Origin: Bispira polyomma | Lineage: Eukaryota | Direction of reading: 5' to 3' | Assembly (NCBI GenBank): GCA_965649765.1 | Contig: OZ287749.1 | Coordinates: forward strand, 12,710,001 to 12,774,000 | Length of the DNA stretch: 64,000 nt | Part shown: one piece after another, positions 6,080 to 55,325 of the stretch | Numbering within the stretch: position 1 is the first letter of the stretch | Layout: every line of letters starts with the position of its first letter | Program-made: the position numbers and the translations under genes | Notes under the pieces: generated by a model | What the model was told of the DNA's origin: nothing | Seen by the model: only the letters and a program-made list of their open reading frames with translations | The model's database searches: none

Positions 6080-9000
6080 ATTAAAGAGCGTCTTCATGTT
6101 GACCAAATTTCTTTAAATGTGTCTTCCCTTCCTTTTTCTTTATTTACATAATATTCATTTTGGTAGATATGTTCAAGTTTTTGTTAAGGTATGGAAGTTT
6201 AATTTTTCTTTGTTTATATCACATGAGAAAATATAATGTTTAGTTGCTATTATAATAAGGTTGATTGGAAGGAATTTATTTCTATCATTGCTAATGGTGC
6301 CCAATATAATTTGCTTTGGATCAAAATTAACCTCAGTAGTGAAATAGTTTTTCAACCACTGCTTTAAATCACTCCATAGTTGTTGCACTGGTTGACAAAA
6401 GACAAATAAGTGCAATATTGTTTCACAGTCAGTATTGCACAATCTACAAATTTCTGATTCAGTAATGGACATTTTAAACAGTAAACTCCTTGTGCCAAGT
6501 ACAAAATGCAATATTCTATACTGAAACCAAATGAAATGATTATGTGTTATTGAATAAAGCATATATGAAATATATTTTTCCATGTCAATGCATCTATTTC
6601 TAAATTTAAATTTCCTTGCCATTTTTGCCTATACTTGGAAGAACTTTCTTTTTTATTGATTTCATTGTAAATATTTTGCAACCACTTTTACCTTGGATAA
6701 CCAGGGACAGATTAGGTATACAGTTGAACCTCTTATTATCCGACCCTCTATTATTCAAATATTTGATTTTACGGATTCAATTTCACTCTCCCAAACTTAT
6801 TTTTTATACTAAAATACCTCTTCTATTCTATGGACCTTCTATTATCCAAACAAATTCTCACTCTCCAAAAATGTCCGTAAAATAGAGGTTCTACTGTATA
6901 TGGTCTTTCTAACCTTGGCAAAACAGGTCTATTATTTTTCTTCAAAAATTTAGTAATATCTGTTTTTACTTGATAATACTCCAAAAAATTTATGTTGGAT
7001 ACATTATACATAGACTCGATTGTTTGTTTGCTTAACAGTACACCATTACTTTGTAGAATGTCACCTAGAACTGCTATACCTGTCTCATGCCATTTTCGTT
7101 TGTAAAAATTTGTTTTTGTAATCCTTTTGTTGTTCCATAAAGGTGTATTCAAGATTGTATCCTTATTACTTTCCATTGTGTGGTCAAATAAAGATGCACA
7201 AATTTGTAATATGTTTTTCCAAACTTCATTACTTACTTTTGATTGTAACAGTGTACACCAATATGAACCAAAGTCTGTTATATTTTTTATTGGACATTGT
7301 GTTAATTCAAAAGTTTTGACCATTGTGATTCCTGTGACTTCAGCAGTTTTCTGATCCAAGTGCTTTTTAAGCTTTGGCAAAGTTTTCAATGTTAACATTT
7401 TCAGTCCACCATTACAGTAATCATGACTAATTTGGATACGGTTAATTTTATCAGGTTTGCCATCCCACAAAAAACCATATAATATATCATTAAACTCTTT
7501 ATAGAATTGTCTACTTGACAGAGGAATTGACATGAATAAATGGTTCAACTTTGCAAGAATCAGTGTTTTTATTATTGTAATTTTACCAAGTGGAGTTAAT
7601 GGTCTGGTTTTCCAACTAAAATTAATTTTCTTTATTTAGTCAATAGCTTTTGAATAGTTCACACTAGGTATTTTTTTCAAATTAATATCAAAATCCAGTG
7701 CTAATAAGGTAAATTCTTCAGTGCTTCAATCAAAACTATAGTTGCATTTAAATTTATCTTTCGAATGTTTTTTCCTTCCAATCCAGACAAGTTTTGTTTT
7801 ACTAAAATTCATTTTCAGTCCCGATATTGTTCCAAATTTTTTTAATTAATTTAGTACTGCAGTTAAGAAGCTCTCTGAACCATCAAGAATTAGCGTGGTA
7901 TCATCGGCAAATTGTGTTACTTTAAATTCAGTTTGTTTTATGGTTAAGCCTTTGATCTCTTTATTATTTTCAAGTAACAGATATAAAATTTGACATAGTA
8001 TAAATAAATATGGGCCAATGTATCACCTTGTTTGCAACCTCTTTCTATGTTAAAAAAAGTCCTGAGGCTTTAAATGCCGTGTTAAACAGTGTTACCCATT
8101 TGATAAATTTTTCAGTAAATCTATTTTTCAGTAAAAGTATTTCAGAACACTACCCAAACATTTACATGAAATCGAATCCAAGGCCTTCTCGAAATCTATA
8201 AGCATTAGTAGTCCATCAATGTTATTATTTTCTGTGTATTCATAATGTCATATATTGAACGAATGCTATCACCTATAAATCTACCTTCTAAAAAACCTGT
8301 TTGAGCCATTGAAATTAATTTTGGTAAAACAGTTTTCATGCGAGACGCTATAACACTTGACAATTGCTCAAAAATGTTAATGTTTCCCATTAAGTTATCG
8401 CTTTTTGAGAACAACTTTGCATAAAAACGCTTAACTTCATTGAGAATATCTTTTTGACATGTTAAGAAACCACCATTATCTACACGGAGTCTTCTCATAG
8501 TTTTGTCAATAAAATGTTTTCTTCTTAAGCCACAAAATATTTTGTTGGTTATTCTTTGGGCAAGAGGTGTTTTGCCAGAGAGCGTATCATGTAACCAGTT
8601 ATATTTATTTCTCTAATTGTTTTTAATTCTTTTTTCATTTGATCAAGTTCATCTAAATGGGTATTATTATTTTCTATTTGCCTTTTAAGTTTTTCCTCTT
8701 GTAAATGTTTTTTTTCTTTAAAATACTCGCAAACTTAATTGATTCTCCCCGAATTTTTAACAGTATCATTTCTAAGAAGGTGCTTTCAGAAACAGTAAAT
8801 CCAATTTTTGAGTCCTCCATATTATTCAGATACTCTGTGTTATAAACAGGTAATGCATACTGATGTTTTACTTTCTTTATGGCTGTGTTAATAATGTCTA
8901 TATAGTCTGAGTTTCTTAAGAGGCTGCAATTAAGGTGCCAAATTCCTTTACCCTCTCAAATTTGTTTATCAGTGAAGTTAACTCAACCGACGAGTGGTCA

Positions 9001-9670
9001 CTCCTATAACTTGATTTTATTACACAATTGTTTATGAAATCGGTCAATTTATTGGAAGTTATAAAGTAATCTTGCTTTACAGGATTGCGACGACACCAGG
9101 AGTATCTTTTTAAAAGTGGATTCCGATGTCTGAAAGTATCTATTAAGTCATGTGTTTTCATAAGGTCAAGCAAGGTTTTTCTTGACTGTGGGTTATTAAT
9201 ATTCACATAGTTACAACTATCTAACGAAGGGTTCAAAACTAGATTGAGATCACTACATATAAAGATATAAGTTTCATCCGATTTTTCAATATAGTCTCCG
9301 ATTGTTTTGAAAAATTGTGGACTATCCTTATTTGGTGCATATACATTGATGAGTCTTAGTGATATATCTTGTAATTGTATATCTACTAAGAGAAGGTTAC
9401 CTTCCAAATCTTTATCAATATTTTAAAATTTTGTATTCAAAGTTTTTCTTAATCAGAACTAGCACACCACGTGAATTTGTCTTGACACCATGGATTATTA
9501 TATCACAGTCATGGTGCGTTGTAATATCATTTCCATCCGATTCCAAGAGTGTCTTGTAGACATAAGATATTTGTAGCATTACTAAGAGAATAATTTATCA
9601 CATCAAATTTTTTTTTTATCTCTAATCCCTTGGAGATTTGCCGATGATACCTTAATCTTGTTATTCAGAT
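6080..9670 (-). pseudogene. L1/Tx1 ORF2: APE endonuclease, reverse transcriptase, C-terminal zf-RVT
   Basis: IKVSSANLQGIRD (APE start), LINVYAPN, SDLNLVL, DYF...SDHS (APE); QTGFLEGRFIGDSIR, QFADDTTLILDG at ~7880-7915 (RT); FLWDGKPDKI, GGLKM, CRLC..ETILHLFVFC (Zn finger); many frameshifts and stops. Confidence 0.9.
6721..6896. mobile_element. Tc1/mariner(pogo)-type MITE inserted in the LINE ORF2
   Basis: TA|cagttgaacctct ... agaggttctactg|TA: 13-bp TIR (1 mismatch) with TA duplication. Confidence 0.8.
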
Positions 9671-10738: not shown

Positions 10739-11970
10739 TTACAATGTATTTCTAACTTGTTGCAAATGTTGGCCAAGAGTTTTTTTACCTCTCCATTTCT
10801 GTGGGTTCCAGATATCTTCATTTGATAGCAACAGTCCGACCCCCAGTATGTGTCATATGGATTAGCTTCCACTAACACAGTATCTCCAGTGTCCTTCAAG
10901 AATCTTCCAAGTGCACGATTTTGACTGAATTTTGCAGATAGTCCCTCTTTTATGTGGTCATCACAGACTGAGCACCACATAGAGTTGTCAAAATTGTTCA
11001 CTTGGTGACCAAAGTATTTGGCTGTACTTGGTGACCAAAGTATTTGGCTGTTTTTGGATCAGATGTTTGTAGAATTTCCTGGGCTCTGACATTGTCCCTA
11101 AAGTATGTAGCCTTGCTGTACATGAAGATCTGTTCAGATGATTGGAACTGTTGATTCTCCAGGGTGATGGGAGAAGGGTGATGATTGGATAGTGGTGATT
11201 GGTCAGTGAAGAATGCTGTAATGTTTTGTTTAGCCACGGTAGATAAGGTCCTGGGTTGCAGATCTAAGGATAACTTATCCAAATCATTGACATCATAATA
11301 AGTTTATCCACTACCAATTTTGTACTTCCCATTAGAATTAAAAGCTGCTTGCAGAACCGGGTTCAGTGTTTTTCGTCGATTCAAAACTTCAGCAGGAAAG
11401 TCTTCTACAACCCATATTCCTGTCTCACAAAAGTTTGATTTTGACTTCAAGATCTTTAACTTGTCTTTGAAATGCAGGAGCTTCTCTATAATCGCTCTTT
11501 TGTTTTCTCTGGTAGGTCCGGTGCGATGGGCTCGGACGATATCTCTGGTATCTAGAGTTATTCCTTGATGTCGGCATAAATCAATCACTATTGCCTCACA
11601 GTCTTCCTTATGATCTGATCTTTCATAAATCTCAATACTCAAGAATTTTAGGTTATCCCTTCTTGAATGAGTCTCCAAATTTATCAATCGATCAGTCAAA
11701 ACATGCTACTGTTTTTCCATGTTTAATTGTTTGGTATTGCACTGTTTTTGTTCATTTTCTAGTTTATCATACTTTTCGGTGAATGACTTCTTTACTGACT
11801 CTAATGATTTATTGATGTTGTTTACAGAACTTTTGATATTATCTTAAGTCACTATCTACTTTGTCCTGTAGGGTTTTAACTGATTGTCTAATAGTGTCCA
11901 AATCCTCTTAGATTGGGTTCAATTTATCATCTAAAATTTCCCCAAGATCAGCAGCTGTAAATTTAGGTGA
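10739..11970 (-). pseudogene. LINE ORF1 (coiled coil + L1-type RRM/CTD) fused to a C-terminal NADAR/YbiA-like domain
   Basis: Coiled coil LDDKLNPI..LDTIRQSVKTLQDKV; LETHSRRDNLKF..., IVRAHRTG, IWVVEDFPAEVLNRRKTL, KLVVDKLI (L1 ORF1). Then FFTDQSPLSNHHPSPI..F.SSEQIFMYSKA..F.D...A.EIL...DPKTAKYFGHQV.NFD...W.......GLSAKFSQN..L...L..TG...LVEANPYDTYWGVGL...W.G...LG..L..VR..L* (NADAR) after removing a 26-bp duplication (11000-11051) and restoring one G at ~10840. Confidence 0.85.
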
Positions 11971-27702: not shown

Positions 27703-29568
27703 CTGGAGAGCCCATTTTGTCATTCTTTCACACTCAGAATGCACCCATGTATTATTATTATTTACAGAAAAGTAGTTAGAATGAGATTTATGTTTTTTTG
27801 CATATACTACCAGTGTGATGCACACTAAAGGACCTTGTAAAATGGTAGAACACCATGGCATTAAAAGTTTTGTTCATATTAAGAGTTATATTTAGAAGAC
27901 ACTTAAAAGGTTTACTTTGGAGACATTTAATATTTTCTAGGTTACATGATGCCAAATTTAGTACTATCAAAAACAGTTTTGAAAAAATAATAGTACCAGT
28001 GCATATTAAAAGCAATGTTATTATACAATGGATGTCTATTCCACTTAGTGTGTTAAATTGAACCAATTATCTCATGGTAAAATTTTAAGGATTTGAAGGA
28101 ATGTAACCTTCCTCAATCAAATATATTATTCAGATCTCCATGTGTCCGTGAACCATGAATTACCAAATTTAACCAATTATCTCATGGTAACAATTTAAGG
28201 ATTACAAGGAATGTAACCTTCCTCAATTAAATATATTATTCAGATCTGCATGAATACCATCTGTGTCCGTGAACCATGAATTGCCAAATATATCTGTCCA
28301 TCACAAATAACATGCTTACACTTTTTACAGAATTATATAATTTTATTATATTAAATATTATATTACACAACATTAACATATAATATAAACTTATATTTCA
28401 CAGTATTACATTAGTAAATCATATGCATAAATAACGTTTGACATTATTGAGGCTTTAATTAGGTTTACGGAATAGTTTTAGTGTGACAATTGTAAACCAG
28501 ACAACATTGTAAGTCTCTATATACACCTTGGCCAATCTCAGTTCATCATCTAATTTTAACATGTAAACATTAACTATATTAAAATGTAGAATTTAAAATA
28601 TTTTCACATAAGAAGTTACCATAAAATATGTGGTTACAACTCATGTACGGCCACTACAACCATAAGACTTAATACTACAACCCTAAAAATTACAGAAATT
28701 TACTTTACATTTTAACACTTTCACCGATAGTCTCTATCAACATGCTTCTCACACATATCATATACTTTCCCATCTGTTCATACAGCACCTTACAACATCT
28801 CAATACACTAATACACATCAATCCCCTAGGCATATCTGACACTCAGAGTTTATAATAGTCCAGCAAACCTGGCATGGACGAGATTGGAAACCGGGACCTA
28901 ACGGCTCCTATCGCCGTGCTGAGGGGTCCAGCCTTTCAACCTTTGTTCAGGGAAAGGTTTAAGTCCGACAAGACATACCCTCCACACGATTTTGTGTTCG
29001 AATCCTCACATGCCAGATAGAAAACCATAAAAGCATCAGAGAATCTCTGTCAAATTCTGATACTTTAAAAACATATGATAATTCCTGCATAAATGGCACA
29101 TAGCCAAACTTACAATTTGTCTGTCAAAACAACATAAATATATCATAAATTCAAGAAAACCCTTGCATTTTTTTAAAGCTAATAAAATGTTGTGATAAAA
29201 GGGAGGTGGTGGGATACACTAAATAGTTTACTTTAAAAGTTGACGGTAAAACTAAATAAAAAAACAGGTGTGTGATCCTCTGCTATTGTAGTACAGTATC
29301 AAAAACAGGTTGACAGGCAAGGATCTAGAGACAAATCAGATGATGTTTCATGGACAGGTATGTGCGCCCTGTAAGTGCATATTAATGGAATACACTATAT
29401 ACGATATGGTAGAAATGTGAAGGCCAAGGGAAAAAATGATTTAAAAATTCCTAGTACATTTTTAAACCTAGTTTTATCTATTTAAATCAGGTTTAAAGGT
29501 GAACAATATTATGGATGATGAATAGATAGTGACACAACTAAAGAAAGAAACTAACCAATTGTTCAGCA

Positions 29569-32500
29569 ATGAGTGATTTGTGTTCAAAGCAGTCTCATGG
29601 TGGAGATGAACAGGAATATATTTTAATACAACAGACTGATACACAAAGGTTGGACACTGATGACACCACCGTGTTTATGGGAGCCAGTGGTTCTGGTGAC
29701 TACGACATAGTAAAGGCTCTTATACAGCAAGGTGTGGATGTGAACCATTGTGACACAGATGGTGATACTGCTGTTCATCGTGCAGCTCAGAAAGGCCACT
29801 TAGATATCTTAAAACTGTTACAGGAAAATGGAGCAAACATAAAAGTACTAAACAATAATGGTCTTAATACCATAATCTTAGCATCATTTGATTCAGGAGA
29901 CAGTGAAACTCTGAAGTAGTTGATAGAACAAGGTGTTGACGTAAACCAGTGTGCCACAGATGGTTGTACTGCTGTTCATTATGCAGCTCAGAAGGGTCAC
30001 AAGGATGTCTTAAAACTCTTACAGGAAAATGGAGCAAACGTAAAAGTACTAAGCAATGATGGTGATAATCCCATAATGTCAACATCACTGGGTTCAGGAG
30101 ACTGTGAAACTCTGAAGTGGTTGATAGAACAAGGTGTTGACGTAAACCAGTGTGACACAGACGGTTGTACTGCTGTTCATTATGCAGCTCAGAAGGGTCA
30201 CAAGGATGTCTTAAAACTCTTACAGGAAAATGGAGCAAACGTAAAGGTACTAAAACATAATGGTGAAAATCCCATCATGTCAGCATCATGGGATTCAGGA
30301 GACTGTGAAACTCTGAAGTGGTTGATAGAACAAGGTGTTGACGTAAACCAGTGTGACACAGACGGTTGTACTGCTGTTCATTATGCAGCTCAGAAGGGTC
30401 ACAAGGATGTCTTAAAACTCTTACAGGAAAATGGAGCAAACGTAAAGGTACTAAGCAATAATGGTGAAAATCCCATCATGTCAGCATCATGGGATTCAGG
30501 AGAGTGTGAAACTCTGAAGTGGTTGATAGAACAAGGTGTTGACGTAAACCAGTGTGACACAGACGGTTGTACTGCTGTTCATTATGCAGCTCAGAAGGGT
30601 CACAAGGATGTCTTAAAACTCTTACAGGAAAATGGAGCAAACGTAAAGGTACTAAAACATAATGGTGAAAATCCCATCATGTCAGCATCATGGGATTCAG
30701 GAGACTGTGAAACTCTGAAGTGGTTGATAGAACAAGGTGTTGACGTAAACCAGTGTAACACAGATGGTTGTACTGCTGTTCATTATGCAGCTCAGAAGGG
30801 TCACAAGGATGTCTTAAAACTCTTACAGGAAAATGGAGCAAACGTAAAGGTACTAAAACATAATGGTGAAAATCCCATCATGTCAGCATCATGGGATTCA
30901 GGAGACTGTGAAACTCTGAAGTGGTTGATAGAACAAGGTGTTGACGTAAACCAGTGTAACACAGATGGTTGTACTGCTGTTCATTATGCAGCTCAGAAGG
31001 GTCACAAGGATGTCTTAAAACTCTTACAGGAAAATGGAGCAAACGTAAAAGTACTAAGCAATGATGGTGATAATCCCATAATGTCAACATCACTGGGTTC
31101 AGGAGACTGTGAAACTCTGAAGTGGTTGATAGAACAAGGTGTTGACGTAAACCAGTGTGACACAGACGGTTGTACTGCTGTTCATTATGCAGCTCAGAAG
31201 GGTCACAAGGATGTCTTAAAACTCTTACAGGAAAATGGAGCAAACGTAAAAGTACTAAGCAATGATGGTGATAATCCCATAATGTCAACATCACTGGGTT
31301 CAGGAGACTGTGAAACTCTGAAGTGGTTGATAGAACAAGGTGTTGACGTAAACCAGTGTGACACAGACGGTTGTACTGCTGTTCATTATGCAGCTCAGAA
31401 GGGTCACAAGGATGTCTTAAAACTCTTACAGGAAAATGGAGCAAACGTAAAGGTACTAAAACATAATGGTGAAAATCCCATCATGTCAGCATCATGGGAT
31501 TCAGGAGACTGTGAAACTCTGAAGTGGTTGATAGAACAAGGTGTTGACGTAAACCAGTGTGACACAGACGGTTGTACTGCTGTTCATTATGCAGCTCAGA
31601 AGGGTCACAAGGATGTCTTAAAACTCTTACAGGAAAATGGAGCAAACGTAAAGGTACTAAGCAATAATGGTGAAAATCCCATCATGTCAGCATCATGGGA
31701 TTCAGGAGAGTGTGAAACTCTGAAGTGGTTGATAGAACAAGGTGTTGACGTAAACCAGTGTAACACAGATGGTTGTACTGCTGTTCATTATGCAGCTCAG
31801 AAGGGTCACAAGGATGTCTTAAAACTCTTACAGGAAAATGGAGCAAACGTAAAGGTACTAAGCAATAATGGTGTTAATCCCATCATGTCAGCATCATGGG
31901 ATTCAGGAGAGTGTGAAACTCTGAAGTGGTTGATAGAACAAGGTGTTGACGTAAACCAGTGTAACACAGATGGTTGTACTGCTGTTCATTATGCAGCTCA
32001 GAAGGGTCACAAGGATGTCTTAAAACTCTTACAGGAAAATGGAGCAAACGTAAAGGTACTAAAACATAATGGTGTTAATCCCATAATGTCAACATCACTG
32101 GGTTCAGGAGACTGTGAAACTCTGAAGTGGTTGATAGAACAAGGTGTTGACGTAAACCAGTGTAACACAGATGGTTGTACTGCTGTTCATTATGCAGCTC
32201 AGAAGGGTCACAAGGATGTCTTAAAACTCTTACAGGAAAATGGAGCAAACGTAAAAGTACTAAGCAATGATGGTGATAATCCCATAATGTCAACATCACT
32301 GGGTTCAGGAGACTGTGAAACTCTGAAGTGGTTGATAGAACAAGGTGTTGACGTAAACCAGTGTGACACAGACGGTTGTACTGCTGTTCATTATGCAGCT
32401 CAGAAGGGTCACAAGGATGTCTTAAAACTCTTACAGGAAAATGGAGCAAACGTAAAGGTACTAAAACATAATGGTGAAAATCCCATCATGTCAGCATCAT

Positions 32501-34886
32501 GGGATTCAGGAGACTGTGAAACTCTGAAGTGGTTGATAGAACAAGGTGTTGACGTAAACCAGTGTGACACAGACGGTTGTACTGCTGTTCATTATGCAGC
32601 TCAGAAGGGTCACAAGGATGTCTTAAAACTCTTACAGGAAAATGGAGCAAACGTAAAGGTACTAAGCAATAATGGTGAAAATCCCATCATGTCAGCATCA
32701 TGGGATTCAGGAGAGTGTGAAACTCTGAAGTGGTTGATAGAACAAGGTGTTGACGTAAACCAGTGTAACACAGATGGTTGTACTGCTGTTCATTATGCAG
32801 CTCAGAAGGGTCACAAGGATGTCTTAAAACTCTTACAGGAAAATGGAGCAAACGTAAAGGTACTAAAACATAATGGTGTTAATCCCATAATGTCAACATC
32901 ACTGGGTTCAGGAGACTGTGAAACTCTGAAGTGGTTGATAGAACAAGGTGTTGACGTAAACCAGTGTAACACATATGGTCGTACTGCTGTTCATTATGCA
33001 GCTCAGAAGGGTCACAAGGATGTCTTAAAACTCTTACAGGAAAATGGAGCAAACGTAAAGGTACTAAGCAATAATGGTGAAAATCCCATCATGTCAGCAT
33101 CATGGGATTCAGGAGAGTGTGAAACTCTGAAGTGGTTGATAGAACAAGGTGTTGACGTAAACCAGTGTAACACAGATGGTTGTACTGCTGTTCATTATGC
33201 AGCTCAGAAGGGTCACAAGGATGTCTTAAAACTCTTACAGGAAAATGGAGCAAACGTAAAGGTACTAAAACATAATGGTGAAAATCCCATCATGTCAGCA
33301 TCATGGGATTCAGGAGACTGTGAAACTCTGAAGTGGTTGATAGAACACGGTGTTGACGTAAACCAGTGTAACACAGATGGTTGTACTGCTGTTCATTATG
33401 CAGCTCATAAGGGTCACAAGGATGTCTTAAAACTCTTACAGGAAAATGGAGCAAACGTAAAGGTACTAAGCAATAATGGTGAAAATCCCATCATGTCAGC
33501 ATCATGGTATTCAGGAGACTGTGAAACTCTGAAGTGGTTGATAGAACAAGGTGTTGACGTAAACCAGTGTAACACAGATGGTTGTACTGCTGTTCATTAT
33601 GCAGCTCATAAGGGTCACAAGGATGTCTTAAAACTCTTACAGGAAAATGGAGCAAACGTAAAGGTACTAAGCAATAATGGTGAAAATCCCATCATGTCAG
33701 CATCATGGTATTCAGGAGACTGTGAAACTCTGAAGTGGTTGATAGAACAAGGTGTTGACGTAAACCAGTGTAACACAGATGGTTGTACTGCTGTTCATTA
33801 TGCAGCTCAGAAGGGTCACAAGGATGTCTTAAAACTCTTACAGGAAAATGGAGCAAACGTAAAGGTACTAAGCAATAATGGTGAAAATCCCATCATGTCA
33901 GCATCATGGGATTCAGGAGAGTGTGAAACTCTGAAGTGGTTGATAGAACAAGGTGTTGACGTAAACCAGTGTAACACAGATGGTTGTACTGCTGTTCATT
34001 ATGCAGCTCAGAAGGGTCACAAGGATGTCTTAAAACTCTTACAGGAAAATGGAGCAAACGTAAAGGTACTAAAACATAATGGTGTTAATCCCATAATGTC
34101 AACATCACTGGGTTCAGGAGACTGTGAAACTCTGAAGTGGTTGATAGAACAAGGTGTTGACGTAAACCAGTGTAACACATATGGTCGTACTGCTGTTCAT
34201 TATGCAGCTCAGAAGGGTCACAAGGATGTCTTAAAACTCTTACAGGAAAATGGAGCAAACGTAAAGGTACTAAAACATAATGGTGTTAATCCCATAATGT
34301 CAACATCACTGGGTTCAGGAGACTGTGAAACTCTGAAGTGGTTGATAGAACAAGGTGTTGACGTAAACCAGTGTGACACAGATGGTCATACTGCTGTTCA
34401 TTATGCAGCTCAGAAGGGTCACAAGGATGTCTTAAAACTCTTACAGGAAAATGGAGCAAACGTAAAGGTACTAAGCAATGATGGTAATAATCCCATCATG
34501 TCAGCATCACTGGGTTCAGGAGACCGAGAGACTCTCAAGTGGTTGATGGAGCAAGGTGTTGATGTGAACCATTGTGATTCATATGGATGTAGCGCCATCC
34601 ATTTAGCAACATATAAAGGCAAAGTACAGGTTTTAAAAATGTTACAAAAATATGGAGCTGATCTTAATGCACAAACAATTGATAAAAACAATGCCCTAGT
34701 TTTTTCAGTTCAGGGCCACAGCAATATAGAAACTGTGAAGTGGCTCATTGAGAATGAGATAGATGTTTTAAACAGGAATGACGAAGGTTTTAGTGCATTA
34801 CACTATGCAGCTGCCTGTGGACAAGATAACCTTCTGAAGCACATTGCGTCATATGACAGGAATGTTTCAGCTGAATCTAAGTTTAA
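29569..34886 (+). CDS. Roco gene coding exon 1: giant ankyrin-repeat exon
   Basis: ORFs 29569-29919 and 29920-34890 share a frame and are separated only by TAG; DG.TAVHYAAQKGH.DVLKLL.ENGANV ankyrin consensus; donor AA|GTAAGT at 34887. Confidence 0.85.
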
Positions 34887-37800
34887 GTAAGTTTTCTGAC
34901 CGATGCAATACATTTTATTTACCTTCTCAACAAATCTTCTTTAAAAGTGACTTAATAAAAATTGATTTTGAAAGCATTTTATTTAAATTTAAATTTATTT
35001 GTGTGATTATTTGTACTATTATTTGTGAAATCAAAATATTTTTTTAAATTAATATTTTGTATAAAAATCATCACTCTATTTTATTGATTATCAAGTAATT
35101 AGTTCTCTGTTTATATTTTCTAAAATTATCAAAATTTTTATGCTATGTTTTTGAATATTTATACTTCAGCTTAACCCCTTTGATGCTTGCCTCAGTCAAC
35201 AATCACAGTGACACTGTATCTCTTCTCCTGAAATGTGGAGCAGAAATAGGCAGAAAGGATGCCCAAGGGAAAAGTGCATTGGATTTTGCAGTAGAAAATG
35301 GGTGTAAGGATATTGTAGAAATACTGCAAACCCATGAACGTAAGTTTTAAGTTAAACCACTTACGTTACATCACATTTGAAGCCTTAAACTGGTTTTATC
35401 TTTATATCTAAACTAACAAAAAGAAGGCTATATCATTGTTTTATATGTCTCTTAAACACTTGATTTAGTTAAGAACGTTATAGTACTGTTAGAATTATAG
35501 TACGTTGTGATTACATTTATGGACGTATATTATACTATAACCATAAGACAAAAGTTCTAAATATTTCTAATGTTAATTAGTCATTATACTGACTTCATGT
35601 TTACAGCTGCATTGACTTTTGTATTGTGGGAGATACACATAGTAAAATCTCAATATGGTTGGTAATTGTTCTGTTACTGTTTGCAGTTTGTTCAAATAAT
35701 AAAAATTGAAGAAGAAATTCAACCAAAGATAATGTTATCGATCAGAATGCAGATCAATGCAGTTTCAATGTTTAATAGTTGCATCCTATCATTTCAGGTA
35801 CTGATGACAGTAAGGTCAAATGGACTGAAAACCAACGCCAACAACTTGTCACACTGTGTATATTAAGAATTTTGACCATTGGTGACCAAGGCATTGGTAA
35901 AACATCATTAGTGAAGACGATAATACTTGGAAAGATTCATAGAACAGGAGCAAATGATAGAACAGTAGTGTTTGATATATGGAGCTGGATACTAAAGAAT
36001 GGAAAGGTCATACTTGCATTTGACCTTGGAGGTCACCCTGGCTATTTTTATACCAGCCATTTTCTTCACTACAACTCTTCTCAGAATGTAGCACTGTTTT
36101 GCCAGGCAGTAACCTCTGATAATTACAACATATCTTTCCAGTGGCTGCAGGCAACACTTACCAGATCTCCAAAGTGCATGGTTATCCCAGTGTTAACCAA
36201 AGCAGATGAAGTTTCACTTGGCCAAATACCACAAAGAGTGGACAAATTCACTGAGGAGATAAAAGCAAAATTGAAACATGAAATAGATGTTTTGGAAAAG
36301 GTCATTACTGATATTTGTGATGATGATGATGATGATGAGAAATTTACCAGAAGCAAGATGGAAACTTATCAATCTTTGTATGATAACTTTGAAAGAAGAT
36401 TATTTGTTACATCAATGCAAGAAGATAATCCATTCAGTGAGAACCTAATAAAATTAAGCCAGTACATAGAAGATCTCAGTGTAAAGGACATGTATCAGGT
36501 TGAAATGCCGAAAGTCTATGTGGACTTTTATTCTCAATTTGGCAAAATGGGTACAATAGCAGATGTTGCAAAGAAGGTGAAACAAAGTGCAACAGCGGAT
36601 AAGAGAAGACCAGAAATAAATCTCAATCTTAAGACAACATTAGAAGTAAAGAAAACAGAAATAGCATCCACAGGTAATCAGATCCTCATTGAAGAGGATG
36701 CAAATGCCCACAATAAAACAGATGAAACTCGAAACATGGCTTCTGATAATACATGTGTATCAAACTACTCTTCAACCAGTCAGCAAATATCTGAAATCCA
36801 GATAAAAAAGTCACCTAAATATGCAGAACCGTTTGTTTCGGATAGCATACCCATGTTAATTAAAGAAGGAAAGATTGTTTCATTCACTGATGCTGCTGAG
36901 TTATATACAAAATTATCTAAGCAATATCCAGGATCTTGTGCTGATATGAAAACTTGTTTACAGCAATTGCACAGCTATGGCATGGCTCTTTGGTTTCAAG
37001 GGAATCCACATATTGAAAAATACATTTTTTTCGACTTTGACTTTTTTAAAGGTCTCTTGAGTACTTTGTTTCACCATGAAGCACTGGACGTTCCTTTCAA
37101 CAAAATAGGGAAGATATTACGAAGGGAGCTTTTTGGCGATGAGGAAGATATCTACAAGTTGTCTATAGAAAGAGTGAGAAGGACAGGTCTGGTCAGCAAG
37201 TCTTTACTGAAGGTGTTTCTGCACAATAGGGACTTTGATGAAGAGGCAGAAACTGTTGCACAGTTGCTTCAACACTTGAATATTGCATATGACTTTGGTC
37301 ATCCAGCTGGCATGGAGTCATCATTGTTTATTCCTTGGTTTGTTGATCACAAAGACATTCCAACTGACATTAGAGACAATATTCCACACCTGGGTGTCTG
37401 TAGCCAAGATGAATTGGCTCTGACCTTTCAACTCAAAGGAAGCATTCCAAGCACTTATTGGCACCAATTTTGTGTGGAGGTTATGTGTAAACTCTATGAT
37501 GTATCAGAGACACAACAACGAATCGTGTTCAGAAATGGTTTGTGGGCAATGGTGGACAACTTGTCTCTTTTTGTACATTTGATGGAGAATTCCTTGAAGG
37601 TCAACATCAGAGGAAAGGTAGAAACTGATACAGTCCACCGAGTGTGGGAATTAGCAGATACCATTTGCAACATAATGCTCAAACTGATAAAGACCTGGTG
37701 GCCTGGGCTAATACCTAGTATAACAGTAGACTGCTCACATTGTCACCTGAGAAACCTTCGTCCATCAGATGTTGATCAAATCCATCAGTGGCTACTACGT

Positions 37801-40562
37801 AAGATGCTAGGAGTAGAAAATAATGTTATTGAAGCTAGATGTCCCTTGGCATCAGCCACCATGGCTGTTCCATCTTTGTTTGTCAGACCTCCGTCAAAAG
37901 GTATTTGATATATCTATAGAGATGTGTATATGTATCTAAATAGTCAAAAAGTATAGGTTTTCAGGTAATAAGGTATAGATTTAGAATAGACTGAGTTATT
38001 AGCTTTACATTTGGTGTTGATTATTCATAAAATAATCTCACATGCAGTATAATAAAGTACTGTATAAGCAACTATTTTCATATATAAGTATTTAAATGTG
38101 TTACTGTTAGCATATAACAATAAATATTGTATATAAAATGTTGTGTATGCTAGTGACATTTGCACCAGTGTGAAATGAATTTCAGATCGAGCAGTTGCAA
38201 AGAAACAGGTTGCCTACTTAAGGAAGTACTTGAAGTCCAATGCTCAGAATGTAAGAATTTTAGCAAACTTTTACTCGAAAAATTATAATCGGTTTAATAT
38301 ACCAAATTTTTAAATAAAGTTAGTTCAACATATTGTAATTATACTGGCTTTATTGTTTACTTTTAAAGTTGATTTCAAAATAGGAAAAATTGGAAAGTTT
38401 TGATATGTCTCTTGTTGTGTTGTTTGTTTGGATAAAATTGTGGAAACTTCAGTCGTTCACAGCCATTGAAAAGTTTGGCCCTGGGACAGTTTTTCCGGGT
38501 TTTTTTTAACCCCTTTTTGTCTGTTATTAGGTATAAGGTTGCTAAAAGCTTTGTTAATTACAGAAAGTCATGTGCTTAGTTTACAAGAAATAATACAATA
38601 ATATGAAAAGTTTAAATTAATGTTTATTTTACATTTTACTTCAATCTGTCGTTTGGGTTTTAGCCATAGAAAATGTAAGTCTATAAAACATTGTTACAGA
38701 TAAAAGTCTCTGTGTAAAATAGAATTTAAAACATGCAAACGCATTGTTATCATCATTAAATACCTATAAATAAAAACGTATATCCATCAACCATAACAAC
38801 AAGCATTATTATGAATAGGCTTACAATTGATGTAACAAATTTATTTAAGAAACACATGACTTATTAGTGTGCAAATATTAAAGGTGTCTGCAGCAACGCA
38901 ATGAATGCAGCCGTTGCTTCGAAAATCACAAAATTTTTAACTCCTGTAATAATGCAGATACCAGATTAATAACAGTAATTTGACAGAATACTTGCAATCT
39001 TTATAAAGCTTTATAGTGTCATTATGTTTTCACAGGTGCATTTAATGAGCAGCAACATGGACCTGGGAGGACGCAATGAGTTGGCCAACTTTGAGAGTAT
39101 GCAATATTATATTTATTTTGAAAATTCTCTTCCAGGCTCATTGATTAAGGTAGTCTTAAATACGAGATATAGCTAATTGTGCTGGCTAGGGTATATTTCT
39201 TTTTGTATAAATAATACTACAATTGCCGATATGTGAAATATAAAAAAATCATTCCAGTACAAACTTTGCATCCTGGTCTAAATATATGCACCCTAATATT
39301 TGCTCTCTTTATCCTGGGATATTGTTGACCCAAGATGTATTATATTGATATTCCATTTTTCAAACTCACAGTGTCTCAAGAAATTTTTTTTTTCTGTATC
39401 ATGTGTAGGCAACTATGTCTCTTTTTTTTCTTTTTTGAGGTGTTCTTTGGTATTGTTTATTGTTTTATCTCTATTGAGTAATTGTGTAATGTTTTTTGTT
39501 TGTGTATTGTCATGTATTTTTTTGTGAAAAATTGTTTTAAAAAAAAAAAAAAAAATATATATATATTGATATTCCAGCTCTGTTGTTTTAATTAGCCATT
39601 CAGCAGACTGTGTTGTGTGAACTGGCCGACAGTATTGGTGTACGTTGGAAGAAAGTTGGTCGACGTCTGGGAATTCCTGAAGGCCACATTGATCAAATTG
39701 TGATGGACAATCCACATCATTCCTGGGACAGGATCTACTGCATGCTCGACAAATGGCAGACAGGACAACCCTGTGATGCTGAAGCAAAGGCAGCCATCTT
39801 GAAGAAAGCTTTGATTGCCAGCGGCTTCAGATTCAAAGATCCACAACCAGTGTCTGTGGAGGTAAAAGGGGTTGAACTTATATTGTATGAAAAGTATAGA
39901 ATGAAATTAAAATGATTGTTTCCTATATTACACATTTTTACAGCTTATAACTCTTTGACGATTGTGCCATTGAAGAAATGACTCATTTTTGCATCTAAAA
40001 TTATTATATTACTTCCCCGTTTTTTATCAATGTTAAGTTGTTTTGTGAGAAATCTGTCACATTGTGTTATCGATCCAATATTAAATAAAGATAGCTTATA
40101 TTCCCATTGCCAAAAACGTCATAAGCATCTACAATTAAAACAGAACCTCCTTTCGTAGTTTATATTATTATTACTGTGAAAATGACAAAACTTAGTAAGT
40201 GAAAATAAAAACCATTTTGAACAAATAATATCCAAATCTGTACTTACGAGATGGGTTCTAGAATGTGAAGCATGTCTATAAAGATCGCAAATTAAATTTC
40301 CCTTTTTATCAGATTTATTGCTATCTCTAACTAGGAAATGTCTTCAGTTACAAATAAAAACAGACATGCATGAAATCTTTTTTGTAATGTAACAAATCGG
40401 TCAAACATTTTGTATTTTATTATACTTTTCTTGTTTTTTTTTGAAAACCAGGGTTCATCAGACGTTTCTGAATACCCTGTAGGACCCAATCCAGCTGCAC
40501 ACAGACTTGTTCTACCTGCACGACTGGATGATAAAGTAAAAGAAGAGGGTACACCTGTCTAA
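29569..40562 (+). CDS. Ankyrin-ROC-COR-death domain (Roco family, DAPK-like order without kinase) gene; 7 coding exons; one in-frame TAG at 29917
   Basis: Exons 29569-34886, 35170-35339, 35798-37900, 38186-38250, 39036-39096, 39596-39861, 40452-40562 join in frame through GT-AG introns (phases 2,1,1,0,1,0); total 8094 nt; start codon and the small linker exons are predictions. Confidence 0.8.
29911..34533 (+). repeat. 23 x 201-bp coding tandem array (67 aa = two ankyrin repeats per unit)
   Basis: ctgaagt(g/a)g recurs every 201 bp from 29911 to 34333, then diverged ctcaagtgg at 34534; no indels between units. Confidence 0.97.
35170..35339 (+). CDS. Roco gene exon 2: last two ankyrin repeats
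   Basis: ttcAG|c...gaac|GTAAGT; LTPLMLASVNNHSDTVSLLLKCGAEIGRKDAQGKSALDFAVENGCKDIVEIL. Confidence 0.9.
35798..37900 (+). CDS. Roco gene exon 3: ROC GTPase + COR domain
   Basis: G1 GDQGIGKTS, G2 DRTVVFDI, G3 FDLGGH, G4 LTKAD, G5 FVTS; COR motifs LQQLHSYGMALWF, LLSTLFHH, LFIPWF, IPSTYWHQFCV, FRNG, CSHC; tttcAG| acceptor and G|GTATTT donor. Confidence 0.9.
38186..38250 (+). CDS. Roco gene exon 4 (linker)
   Basis: tttcAG|at...aat|GTAAGA; DRAVAKKQVAYLRKYLKSNAQN; phase-compatible. Confidence 0.7.
39036..39096 (+). CDS. Roco gene exon 5 (linker)
   Basis: ttttcacAG|gtg...gaga|GTATGC; VHLMSSNMDLGGRNELANFE; phase-compatible. Confidence 0.65.
39596..39861 (+). CDS. Roco gene exon 6: death domain
   Basis: VLCELADSIGVRWKKVGRRLGIPEGHIDQIVMDNP...DRIYCMLDKWQ...AILKKAL matches the death-domain pattern; donor gag|GTAAAA. 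Confidence 0.85.
40452..40562 (+). CDS. Roco gene terminal coding exon
   Basis: Pyrimidine tract + ccAG|ggt; GSSDVSEYPVGPNPAAHRLVLPARLDDKVKEEGTPV*. Confidence 0.65.
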   Translation, partial: GSSDVSEYPVGPNPAAHRLVLPARLDDKVKEEGTPV

Positions 40563-49064: not shown

Positions 49065-49845
49065 TTATTTTAATTATTATTATAAATTTTTAATGCACTT
49101 TATTGATGCTAGGCATCTTATAACACGCAACAGCAGAATTATTGGTCCAAACATTAAGTCCATAGACATTTCAAAGTTGCACGAGGGAAGCTAAGGTGGG
49201 TAGGCAAGATTAAAAAGATAGGTTTTAAGCTTTTCCCTAAAACCGATAAGTGTGTCAACTGATTTGAGGTCGAATGGGAGACTGTTCCATAAACGTGGAG
49301 CTGCAGTGGAGAACGCTCAGAATCCCGCCTTCCTGATTGGTCTGACTGAAGTGACAGAGAATCTGTTGCATCTCTTGCGGTTACTGAAGGAAAGAAGGGA
49401 GGCAAGGTAGGGGAGCTGTTGAGTGACTACAGCCTTAAAAGTAGTAACGTAAATCTTGAACAAAATGCGAGAATGAATGGGCAGCCAGTGTAATTTTTTG
49501 AGGTAAGGAGTGACGTCTGTGCGACAACCCAGGCGAAAAATGACCCTATATATGTAGTTTTGGATGGACTGGAGCTTTTTAATGTGTGACTTGTTTGCTC
49601 TATACAAGAGAGAGTTGCAGTAGTCGAGCCGGCTAATCACAAGGGCATTTGCCACAGTTATCGGTGTGTCCATGGACAGGTGGTTTCTGATTCTTTTGAT
49701 GTCACGTATATGGTAATAGCAGGAGCGACAGATGTTGGCAATATAAGTGTCGAACGAAAAGGCTGAATCAAAAGTGACACCCAGGTTTTTGGCATTTTCG
49801 GAAGGTAGTATGTCTTTTCCCAGCAAGGAGATGAGAAACATTGCT
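49065..49845 (-). mobile_element. L2-clade LINE 3' fragment inserted in the DIRS element
   Basis: AKNLGVTFDS, CYYHIRDIKRIR, LVISRLDYCNSLL, LKKLHWLPI; (AAT)n-like tail at ~49065-49083; the same 3' end recurs at ~41060-41170 and ~58580-58765. Confidence 0.9.
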
Positions 49846-52800
49846 AGTGAAAAAGTTCTAGAATATTTACAACAAACAATTCTAGTGAAAATATTCAAAA
49901 TTGTGATCTGAACTAGAGATACTACCTAAAGGCTCAGGTATTCCAGACTGTTGTGGAATCTATTGTTGAATGACTAGTTCAACAAGCTGACCCACCATGA
50001 TAGTACTATTAGAGACCTGGTAGAAAAATCTACTAGAACCCAGAAGCATGGCATCCCTGGTCACCCTGGAGCCATGAAAACCATCTGGCAATTGTAAGTT
50101 ACAAGCTTGACTGAAAAGTACAGAGGAAGCTTCATCAGTCTGCTTGCAAATCTGTGTATGTGTGGCCTATGGCCACATTGCAGGTTGCAGTGAACACCTC
50201 TTAATGGAGTAAACACCCTGTCTGAACATTCTTGTACCTCCTGGAAAGGAAGTAAACAATAAAATCAGAATACTAGTAAGCAAGGAATGAGTGTGGCTGT
50301 ATGTGCAACAAACCTAAGTATTTGTCCATACCATAACCCCCACCAGGGATACATATTCCTAGAATATGTATGACTCCTCCTAGCATACCAACTCTGGGGA
50401 AACCGTGAAAAGCACATTGTGTTCTTCCTGGTACAGAGGAAAACCAATAAGCAAACTGAGAATTTTTCCATCATTCCAGATGAGAGAACAAGATAGAATC
50501 AAGTAGAATGCTCAGATCAAGAGACTGATGATAATTCTATAAACATCAGAGATACCATTGGACAGGCCTGAAGTTACTCGTCGACAAAGGTATTTTCCAC
50601 CCCATGGAAGGCCAAATGGAAATACTGAATTCTATGGAAAGGGTCCCCCCTTGTTTGTTGACATCAGAACACAACCACGGTGTTGTCTGAGAAAAGAAGA
50701 ACACTATTGTTCTGAACTTGAAAACTCTTTAGAGCCAGTAACACAGACTTTATCTCCAACATAACTATGTGAAGATGTGCTTCCAAGGAGCTTCATAGAC
50801 CAATTACACTGATATTTTCTATGTGAGCTCCCCACCCCTTCTCCGAAGAATCCGAGAACAACAGGACATTGTCTTCTTGTGGATGAAATGGAACTCCTTT
50901 CAAAAACTGAGGATTGGAGATGCAACCTTTGAATGGAAATAATGTGATCCTTTTGTATGTGACATTACTCTTTTGTTGGGTATACGAATCTGTTTCCAAC
51001 GTCAAAATGGTAACCCCTCCCCCCCAAAAAAAAAAAACAAAAAAAAAATAAATAAAAACAAAACAAAAAACAAACAAAGGAACAAAGTAAGCGATTGTTG
51101 AAGCAACCTATTTCGAGAATTCATCCCGAGGTCCAAATCTTTGAGAAATCTTTCAAAAATATCAACCATTCACCTTTGATAAGAAACTTTCAGATCGACT
51201 CTGCTGTCTCTATTCTGAAGTTGGGTAAATTCCGAAAATTGTTGACCAAACTGTTATTGATCACTGAACTACACCTGATAAAGTTTTGAAACTATAGAAA
51301 CCTAGTGAAGTTATGCTTACAACAATACTATTGCCTTTGCTTTGTCAACACATGTGATACAGAATTCAGGTGAATCTGAAGATTTGTGGAATTAGCTCGA
51401 AATCCTTAAATAAACACGAATATCCACTTAAAATGTTTTCCATACCTAAAAGAATCATCATCCAGTTCCTTAAACTTTATGTATCCTTCTTTCACCCACA
51501 TCCACATGAAGAAGCAAACCTGAACTCGAAACTTGGCTGTCCTCCACTCCCGCAAAGAGAACATGAAAAGGAAGGAAGCAGCATTCGTTTGGTACATTCT
51601 ACTCTGTGAACTGTCAAAAGCCCCCAAAACCCTGAAAAATCCTCGACTACGGAAACTGCCGACTGTCAATATTGAAGTAGGACATCTTCTAAATCAGAAG
51701 CTGGAGAAAAATTTGAAGTTTTAATGAAGTTTCCTGGCAAACTGTGGGACGAACAGGAAAACTGGAACTGCTGACCAAAAGTCTAAAAGCTATATAAAGG
51801 AAGAGAATATTCCAGTCATGAGGCTCTGAAAATCTTAAAGCTGTGTTCCTGCTTCCTGAAGCCAGCATGGCCTGAAACTGAGGATCTACAGCTGTGAAAG
51901 GACAAGACAGGGTCTTTCCTGAAGCCAGCATGGCCTGAAACTGTGAATATATGGCTGTGAAAGGAAAAGACAGGGTCTTTCCTGGAAGCAACATGGCCTG
52001 GAACTGTGGATCTATGGTTGTGAAAGGACAAGACAGTGGAGTCAGCTACCTTGTGGAACCAGCATAGCATTCTGAAGAAGCTTTAGACCTGCCCTGGCAT
52101 CCATAGAGTCATAGACCTGCCATGGACTCAATGCAGCCATGGACCTGCCCTGGCTACCATGTAGTCGTGGAAACTGGCAAGTACCCCATGGAGTTGTTCT
52201 TGGCCTTTGTGATGATATTCACGGCTGTGTGGACCTTAAGAATCCTTGCCAGTAAGATCTACTGACCCACCATGGCCTCCTGACAAACTATAGCCCCTTG
52301 CAACCTCATGGTCTCCAGCAAAATTATGGGTTCCAGCCAAATCATGGTCTTCAGCCAAATACTTTCCCCCTCAGAATCCTGAAGAACCCTTAGATGAAGA
52401 GGTGTGGGTACTGGGCCCAGTAGTAGTAGTTGATTTGCCATGACTACAAAACATCTCCATCACTAAACAAGCCATAAGAAGCCTTTGCCCACAAAAATGT
52501 GACAGCAAAACATAAGCTTCAAAACATAAGCTTAAAAAAAAAAAAACCAACAGGGACTAGGCCCAAAAGTTGTAGATTTTCCATGGCTAAGTGATTTGGA
52601 ATAAGTGCTAGTCACCTACGACTGCAAAACATCTCCATCACTAAACAAGCCATAAGTAACCGACTCTGTTTGAAGGCGAAAACGTCGCCAACTTAATCTC
52701 TGATGAAGTGCTAGTACTGTAGCGATTAGTATGAAGACCACCTTAATCCAGAATGTTTCGACTAGGCAAAGATCACTTTTTGTCAACATCAACTGAACGC

Positions 52801-53010: not shown

Positions 53011-55325
53011 TCATGTTACATTTGTTACAACACTTTGACTTATTAAACTGATCACAAGCTCATCTGGTAGTGGGGGAAAGCCTGCTGCTGTGGCGGAAAA
53101 GCTGCTGTTGGAACTGTTGGAGTTGCTGCCCTTTCCTGGACCGTTGTTATTAGTTTGAACCACTCCTCCTTGAACTGCAGGAAGGAACGTTCTGGCAGTT
53201 TCTTCGTCTCCATGCTTAACCAGTTCATATAGGCTCCTCATATTCCCTTATCTTTGGGTTTCTTTGCCTCTGTCAGGATCCCTGTTATAGTCTGTTCCAT
53301 CCTCCCAATGGAATCGGCCAATTCAATACTGAACTGCCTCTCCTGTGTGTTTAGAGGATTCAAAAGCTGTTGATGACTTTGGTGAGGCCAAGTTGGATGA
53401 CTCCATGTCACCCTGATCTGTATCAGAGTGGGACAACACATCAGGACAACCACGAGGGGCGGCCCAATGTGAGGCTGATGCGATAGGCTTGAAGCCCGCA
53501 GACTTGTTGAGTTCGCGTCTGATGTGTGGCTTGAGGAACGAGAAGTTAGTCTTCACTAACTAGTCTGATATGTCGCTCGATCAATTCTGGGGCAGCAAAC
53601 TTGAGAAAATGTTCTTTAACTTTATATGGGATAAAAAACCGGATAAAATTAAAAGGTTAACACTAAAAAAGAGTTATCTCAAAGGTGGACTTAACATGAT
53701 TGATATTAATAGTTATATAAGTGCTCTAAAATCAACTTGGATACGTAGAGCGAACTCAGATATGGATGCACCTTGGGTAAAGGCAGCAGAATCCTATATT
53801 CAATCGCCTCTTAGTCTTGTAATGTTAGGATCTGGTTATGCAATAAATATTTCAAAGAAATGCAAGAACAAATTTTGGTCAGAGGTCTTAAGTGCATGGA
53901 GTAATGTACAAGCAAATATAAAGATTAAGGACATCACCGCAGCTTTAGCGAATCCTCTTTGGTATAACCTGAATATTTCAAAGGCCGAACTTTATTTACC
54001 ACATTGGTATAAAAGGGGCATTTTAACCCCTAGTGATCTGATGTATAATAATGGCGACTTTATTTCACAGGAAATAATACAGAGTGTATATGGCATTAAA
54101 ACTAACTTCTTAGAATATCATAGAGTGATAACATGTATACAAGGTTATCTAGAAAAACTGAAGCTACTGCGTTCAGAAAACGTAAAACCCAACTTTCCCA
54201 ATAACTTTAGACTTCTGTACAAGTCAAACAGTGGCAGTAAGGATTTCTACAAAATTCTGATAGATGCAAAGAGTCCTGATGAGTTATTCTACTCATACTG
54301 GGAGGACAATCTTGGAATAATTTTAACTAGTGCAGACTGGAAAAATATATATAAAATCTGCTTTAAAACAGTTAAAGACAACTACCTCATATGGTCACAA
54401 TATCGCACTTTGTATAGAATTTTAGGAACTAAGGGTCATCTGTGCAAAGTAAAAATTGCAACAGATGGAACTTGCAGCTTTTGTGGAACAGGCATAGAAA
54501 CAGTTCTGCATCTTTTTGTCCAATGTGAAAAGGTTAAAAAATTTTGGGGAGATATTGAAACTTTAATAAAGGTCAATCTTGAAATTGATTTCCCAATAAA
54601 TGGAAAATATATCATTTTTGGGATGTTTTCACAAAGTTCAAACATTGTAGTAAACATAGTTTATATTACGGCAAAAGTTTACATATTTTGGACGTCAAAG
54701 TCTACAAGCCAATTAAGCGTACAAAATTTCAGTAAATACTTACCTAAAATTGATTTAGAACAGGAATGTGTTGCCAGACTAGAACAAAGGTATGAAATAT
54801 TCCATAAGCAATGGAATCTGATTAATAAATTATTTTAGACACTAGGAAAATTATGTACGGAAAGGAAAAAAGAAAAGAAGATAAATAATTTTGGATCAAG
54901 AAATTTAAAGCTTGAAATAATAATGATAAAAAAAAAAGAAGCAAAAAAAAAAAAAAAAAAAAAAAAATATCATTTCAAGATAGCCACAAATAACACATGG
55001 TAATTTTGATTTATATATTGTGAAAGAGAAAATACCGTGTGCATAATAACTAAAAAAAAAGAAGAAATACATCAGTGTATAAAGTTTCTCATAAAACAAA
55101 ACAAAAAATCAGTATAAGCTAATATGAAAATATAGTTACTATAAAGCAAATACAATTTGTTGGTAAATGTGAATTTGCTGGTTATTGTTTTCTTCAGAGT
55201 AATGCTCACCCATTTTGCTGATAAATAATATTAGATTGAAAGATTGTAAATGTCTTCTATCTTTGTTTGGATTATTTATTATGGCTGTGGAGTTAGCTAA
55301 ATTAAATTTACACATAAATAAACAG

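Follow-up and report, generated by a model that had tools for sequence, protein, structure and literature searches.

A kinase-less ankyrin-ROC-COR-death gene family of Bispira polyomma as likely intracellular sensors of LRR-ROCO origin, with a probably inactivated copy

Repeat-bearing ROCO proteins and related receptors

ROCO expansions have already been published as candidate receptors, and for kinase-less ROCO proteins a role as immune receptors is so far a proposal in brown algae, placozoans, and bacteria. The expanded ROCO repertoire of brown algae, in which the LRRs are diversified by exon shuffling, has been proposed to supply immune receptors (PMC11378527), and the sections of that article used here name ANK-ROCO proteins in oomycetes and Gonium only, next to about forty combinations in animals. 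In Trichoplax, an expanded set of ROCO proteins with TPR or LRR and with CARD or death domains has been described as candidate receptors (PMC4104024), and the bacterial AP-GTPase systems comprise ROCO-type candidate immune receptors (PMC8195603). ROCO-TIR and ROCO-death genes are mentioned for Aplysia (PMC9334734), and a ROC-caspase for Owenia (PMC11463336). The closest named ROC-COR relatives of the gene described here are the invertebrate LRR-ROC-COR-effector proteins annotated as "MFHAS1 homolog", which are kinase-less, form lineage-specific expansions, and likewise carry the repeat sensor first and a Death, CARD, or caspase domain or an enzyme last. Examples are XP_066297267.1 and XP_019643705.1 of Branchiostoma, KAL3854054.1 of Sinanodonta, and KAK3732553.1 of Actinostola.

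Fungal NLRs carry ankyrin repeats that are homogenised and at the same time diversify, a regime seen in few (0.8%) of the repeats of animals at large (PMC4986451). In the excerpted account, the fungal proteins have their effector first, a NACHT or NB-ARC ATPase, and about 7–16 ankyrin repeats that are more than 85% identical, and polymorphism among individuals has been shown for them (PMC4986451).

The gene presented here, from a 64,000-nucleotide window of the Bispira polyomma genome, combines features of these systems. It differs from the MFHAS1 homologs in having a homogenised ankyrin array and no N-terminal LRRs. With the ROCO proteins of brown algae, Trichoplax, and bacteria, for which an immune role is proposed, it shares the combination of repeats, ROC-COR, and a variable effector in many paralogues; unlike in brown algae and Trichoplax, the Bispira family diversifies inside one 5-kb exon of ankyrin units. 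Concerted evolution, variation in repeat number, variable sites on the binding face, and a similar identity between units are shared with the fungal NLRs as far as the excerpts of PMC4986451 describe them, whereas the Bispira proteins contain a Roco GTPase, have their effector last, and comprise 21–66 repeats, with array variation known between paralogues and within arrays rather than among individuals. Compared with a strict NLR, there is no STAND NTPase (NACHT or NB-ARC), ROC-COR is central, the repeats are N-terminal, and the domains run in reversed order with the effector last; the missing STAND NTPase and the reversed order speak against an NLR-like role. DAPK1 has the same ANK-ROC-COR-death string, but DAPK belongs to a clade of its own, is encoded by a separate gene in the same genome, and carries a kinase, a few divergent ankyrins on separate exons, and a ROC-COR region spread over many exons. 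Judged from its sequence, the gene is a member of the ROCO family, neither a DAPK nor an NLR, which likely works like an NLR.

No report of an animal ankyrin-array ROCO-death family, or of a homogenised ankyrin array joined to a ROCO protein in an animal, was found in the literature searched; Marin's ROCO surveys, as well as Figure 2 and the supplements of PMC11378527, may list the architecture. The family offers an animal example of the evolutionary pattern that marks fungal NLRs; with two intact members that differ greatly in array length and with a simple output domain, it makes the idea directly testable.

Gene structure and the stop at codon 117

The gene extends over positions 29569–40562 of the window on the plus strand and consists of seven exons (Table 1). 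Its six introns are all of the GT-AG type, the exons join in phase, and the six junctions lie at identical places in three paralogues. The joined coding sequence comprises 2,698 codons, and the ATG and leader of exon 1 are kept in the paralogues C11:34.19, C11:54.26, and C11:55.58. A further coding exon upstream, spliced through the AG directly preceding the ATG, was considered and rejected: the phase varies between paralogues, and the AG is absent in one of them.

Table 1. Features of the ankyrin-ROC-COR-death gene (window positions)
Feature	Position	Strand	Basis
Exon 1: ATG, short leader, N-cap and 52 ankyrin repeats in a single exon	29569..34886	+	Open reading frame and paralogue comparison
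Homogenised array of 201-bp double-ankyrin units (33+34 aa)	29728..34575	+	Tandem-repeat detection
In-frame TAG, codon 117, Trp position of the repeat	29917..29919	+	Joined coding sequence, paralogue comparison
Exon 2: final two ankyrin repeats	35170..35339	+	Pfam Ank E=2e-10; conserved junctions
Exon 3: ROC GTPase and COR	35798..37900	+	Pfam, motifs, structure model
ROC motifs	G1 35881-35904, G3 36022, G4 36196, G5 near 36412	+	Within exon 3
ROC/COR insert, predicted disordered, fast-evolving	36550..36825	+	pLDDT <50 at residues 251-342; dN/dS 0.44-0.86
Exon 4: short helical linker, kept throughout the ankyrin clade	38186..38250	+	Clade comparison
Exon 5: linker	39036..39096	+	Conserved junctions
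Exon 6: death domain	39596..39861	+	Pfam Death E=6e-9
Exon 7: 36-aa tail and stop, kept in close paralogues	40452..40562	+	Paralogue comparison

The domains named in the original prediction are recovered. The array of double repeats, its caps, and exon 2 together give 54 ankyrin repeats, in accordance with the roughly 54 predicted. Pfam detects Roc (E=3e-7) and the C-terminal death domain above its cut-offs, while COR-B (1.6e-4) and COR-A (2.7e-3) fall below theirs. The G1–G5 motifs of the ROC domain, following the definitions that we assume for them, read GDQGIGKT (G1), T (G2), DLGG (G3), TKAD (G4), and TSM (G5). The 52-row alignment yielded an AlphaFold model (pLDDT 81.6, pTM 0.82) that matches LRRK1 (E=1e-16), LRRK2, and the C. 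tepidum RocCOR tandem over 670–760 columns, which bears out the presence of COR despite its weak profile scores. The best PDB sequence match of ROC is the ROC of LRRK2; among PDB entries, the death domain matches ankyrin-3 best (E=9e-5). The ROC-COR region evolves under purifying selection (dN/dS 0.22–0.38). Three cysteines at the end of COR (Cys645, Cys648, and Cys681; window 37730–37845) are more than 90% conserved in the 52-row alignment and are a possible metal site.

The single spliced frame of the original prediction does not hold, as the TAG at codon 117 was overlooked. It lies in the first double unit, at a position occupied by Trp in every other unit and in close paralogues, and the 2,580 codons downstream of it are open. 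No strong splice donor upstream of the stop that would skip it was found; the best candidate has 5 of 8 consensus letters, compared with 4–7 in the real donors, on a crude score. The dN/dS of the gene's own ROC-COR branch is still 0.33 (15 silent and 18 replacement changes), like the 0.28 of its sister branch, and therefore the stop is young. It may mark recent pseudogenisation or a null allele that still segregates, or be an error of the assembly. Stops ahead of introns are the usual trigger of nonsense-mediated decay, and the transcript would either enter that pathway or yield a 116-aa stub.

As assembled, the window copy is probably a recent null, although the assembly may be wrong at the TAG, or a single allele may carry it. 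Short-read contigs of three public runs (one study, two samples) match positions 29000–29836 or 29000–29780 exactly and leave 29917 uncovered in its first-unit context, and the assembly contains no duplicate of the 5' end above 85% identity. It is rather unlikely that the locus is functional in the species, with protein made in at least some animals, either through an assembly error or a segregating null or through a restart at the ATG at 30076, which would leave about 50 repeats. The long open frame and the low dN/dS of the terminal branch would fit such a locus, as would the paralogue C5:81.96, which likewise has a 5' lesion only, followed by a long open frame. Against it stand the chromosome-scale assembly in 75 contigs, the 15 ATGs, the start itself included, that precede 30076, and the position of all six introns downstream of the stop. 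With the copy in the window probably dead and unsuited for study, interest rests in the family.

Relationship to LRR-ROCO proteins and DAPK

The domain string of the gene equals the C-terminal part of DAPK, and 42 of 61 DAPK-like database proteins likewise have no kinase (as isoforms, partial models, or true losses), so that the gene might have come from a DAPK duplication followed by loss of the kinase and amplification of the ankyrins, or might be a normal DAPK whose kinase exon lies far away. Several lines of evidence make this extremely unlikely. The genome contains a true DAPK elsewhere: the basic-loop motif, which we take as a mark of DAPK, was found at a single site, C2:72.13 Mb, 59 Mb from the window gene, and the locus there (C2:72.13–72.22 Mb; L173-L183) consists of kinase, ankyrin, and ROC exons and then COR-death exons. 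Its last exon is 44–50% identical to the DAPKs of annelids and molluscs, with the annelid closest. Short tandem partial copies precede an ankyrin exon of this locus (L181:97-729).

As the original prediction had it, there is no kinase exon in the 49.7 kb upstream of the window gene. A DAPK-kinase profile that detected seven exons at the DAPK locus, used as a control, matched none of the 938 frames over 49.7 kb upstream of the gene and no exon upstream of nine paralogues, and Pfam returned no kinase match in the 142 upstream frames scanned of 229.

The phylogeny of the shared domains points away from DAPK as well. Trees took in 83 and 53 profile rows, from which near-duplicate and badly broken loci were excluded and among which vertebrate MFHAS1 is absent. 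In the 53-row tree of ROC-COR sequences, the ankyrin group is recovered with 100/100 support inside a clade of 25 rows, which joins the LRR-ROCO genes of the same genome (100/99), and DAPK stands apart (100/99). A topology forcing the ankyrin group together with DAPK was rejected by the AU test (p=5.9e-7), with the limit that the DAPK rows fill only about 270–290 of the 644 profile columns (~45%). The death domain, in turn, matches those of the LRR-ROCO genes and none of six DAPK death domains in BLASTP, and in the death-domain tree the latter form their own clade (100/99), so that the two are unrelated apart from their fold.

Searches outside the species gave 226 relatives at E <=0.001, 150 of which were listed. 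Among the matches listed, together with two added cluster members, all 60 proteins of at least 800 aa contain LRRs and none of the 60 contains a kinase; their tails are Death, CARD, caspase, OTU, GT4, or trypsin domains. Those with names are mostly called "MFHAS1 homolog", and identity to them is 24–26% along the aligned portions. Long homologues were also sought by word-based searches, which are weak evidence and found nothing, and no relatives were found in a metagenome scan.

The likeness to DAPK1, the comparison chosen in the original prediction, is thus convergent, with ROC-COR and death domain both coming from the LRR-ROCO side. To judge by these sequence comparisons, the ANK-ROC-COR-death string arose here separately from DAPK; a DAPK-like string that arose twice calls for caution in annotating such genes as DAPK.

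Ankyrin arrays, the gene family, and its possible function

The tandem array of exon 1 has a period of 201 bp, each unit encoding two ankyrin repeats, and contains 24.1 copies with 96% matches. Its 23 core units, 14 of them distinct, have a mean DNA identity of 95.6%, and exact matches of 600–700 bases recur at shifts of 5, 6, and 11 units, which indicates block duplication of several units. Units are 90–96% identical inside one gene and 80–87% identical across genes, and the framework residues are gene-specific; the arrays therefore evolve in concert, each gene homogenising its own.

The variation that persists is concentrated at few sites. Aligned DARPin modules vary at positions 2, 3, 5, 13, 14, and 33 of the ankyrin repeat, which we take to be the positions randomised in DARPins. 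The randomised DARPin positions lie on the concave binding face, according to the excerpted source (PMC8229355). In the window array, 7 of the 11 recurrently variable residues fall on the 12 DARPin positions among the 67 of a unit (p=2e-4), and four paralogues show the same enrichment (6/11, 7/17, 7/13, and 7/15; p=0.001–0.008), giving five arrays out of five. Pooled over the arrays, 78 replacement changes at DARPin positions compare with 52 silent changes overall, about twice the rate (p=2e-5), in counts that ignore recombination. At the DARPin positions alone, replacement changes (78 over 30 sites) and silent changes (13 over 5.7 sites) stand at a ratio of about 1.1, and pairwise pN/pS is 1.0–2.4. 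Positive selection on the predicted binding face is suggested and no more, because the silent rate at the same codons is equally high and recombination is ignored in the counts; relaxed constraint can explain part of the surface-residue pattern. The variable ankyrin sensor of the original prediction draws support from this concentration of changes at binding positions; the window copy itself has a premature stop.

A search with the ROC-COR exon matched 75 places in the genome, grouped into at least 54 related loci; this is a lower bound, as 64 of 197 candidates were scored and further searches show additional loci. The ankyrin clade comprises 12 of them, and P0001 was grouped with this clade as a putative member; ankyrin sequence lies upstream in 11 of the 12 and a death domain is present in 11. 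Two are intact over their whole length, C11:34.19 with 66 repeats (3,104 aa) and C11:54.26 with 21 repeats (1,590 aa). Eight are damaged: the window copy, C5:81.96, which has lost its start codon and has a 4-base gap, and six loci in which ROC-COR is broken; the other two are counted neither as intact nor as damaged. The expectation of a multi-copy gene with a changing repeat number is borne out, as the five loci counted range from 21 to 66 repeats. Many sister loci show no repeats within 10 kb upstream. Behind COR, related genes of this genome have exons for Death, CARD, caspase, or kinase domains, and the C-terminal tail is hence interchangeable.

On balance, the sequence evidence favours reading the window locus as one member, likely inactivated not long ago, of a family of 12 genes that evolves by birth and death, is derived from LRR-ROCO genes, and whose intact members would be NLR-like intracellular sensors. 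The family as a whole likely consists of variable intracellular immune or danger sensors. The array would keep changing in length, and its concave binding solenoid in surface, through unequal crossing-over and conversion of the 201-bp units. Clustered death domains recruit death-domain adaptors towards caspase or NF-kB signalling. In the Bispira proteins, ligand binding would shift the GTP-dependent monomer-dimer state of ROC-COR, this shift would cluster the death domains, and the adaptors thus recruited would start one of these outputs; every step past architecture and sequence evolution is inference. The excerpted literature on other Roco proteins describes a change of the ROC-COR monomer-dimer state with the GTP cycle (PMC6337361).

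The same arrays could belong to a non-immune scaffold, expanded by slippage, in which unconstrained surface residues drift and which serves as a membrane or cytoskeletal adaptor, like ankyrins, or has little function. The replacement/silent ratio near 1 at the binding positions, the damage in 8 of 12 copies, and the match of the death domain to ankyrin-3 would all be in line with this, as would the trafficking and cytoskeleton roles noted for other Roco proteins in the sections used of PMC4104024. The same few positions vary, however, in all five separately homogenised arrays, ROC-COR is under purifying selection, and CARD, caspase, and kinase tails are swapped among sister genes, and the scaffold is accordingly judged unlikely. 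Allorecognition in place of anti-microbial sensing, with arrays that read polymorphic self proteins as in fungal het NLRs, is judged very improbable; in its favour, the repeat regime is that of fungal NLRs, some of which control allorecognition in the excerpted account (PMC4986451).

A broader and more tentative idea, which we hold possible though doubtful, is that LRR-ROCO GTPases gave rise in one animal lineage to a hypervariable receptor class that reaches its diversity as fungal NLRs do, with natural DARPin-like libraries of 20–90 repeats reshuffled in single exons, a GTPase switch, a death-fold output, and an array cassette that also moves to other genes (C10:56.05 Mb). Invertebrates would then have a second system of hypervariable receptors inside the cell, one independent of NACHT proteins.

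Several further loci were noted in the genome. At C10:56.049–56.058 Mb (L189-L190), a 3,108-aa frame holds about 44 of these double-ankyrin units and an unrelated end; no ROC or death-domain exon was found in about 19 kb downstream, where exon-like frames have no Pfam match, and the guess of a ZU5 domain after the array was dropped, as it got no Pfam match either. Near-identical inverted remnants at C9:43.65 and 43.68 Mb retain the final ankyrins together with exon 2 and a death domain disrupted by a frameshift, with no ROC-COR exon in between, and another ankyrin fragment lies at C11:54.24 Mb (all L192-L197). The paralogue C11:34.20 (L013; the intact 66-repeat copy) starts with MGNCC, which the other copies do not, and which in our view resembles a myristoylation and palmitoylation signal.

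Caspase exons follow ROC-COR at C6:79.48, C7:53.55, C14:25.06, and C2:8.16 Mb (L072, L086, L100, and L108), and no N-terminal parts of these four loci were identified within 10 kb. In the clustered ROCO genes at C14:26.05, 26.62, 27.48, and 27.89 Mb (L042, L064, L070, and L046), a kinase exon directly follows COR and an exon with one ankyrin lies upstream, an LRRK-like order arisen within this clade. Many single-exon kinase frames of 411–418 aa are dispersed in the genome, with a tandem cluster at C4:97.6–99.1 Mb, suggesting a further expanded or mobile kinase family. Within the window itself, a frame with a NADAR domain (11001–11705, minus strand; Pfam E=8e-11) adjoins a LINE ORF1-like frame, and LINE-type retroelement fragments (endonuclease, zf-RVT) occur at 6176–9422 and 49320–49925 on the minus strand and at 53564–54835 on the plus strand.
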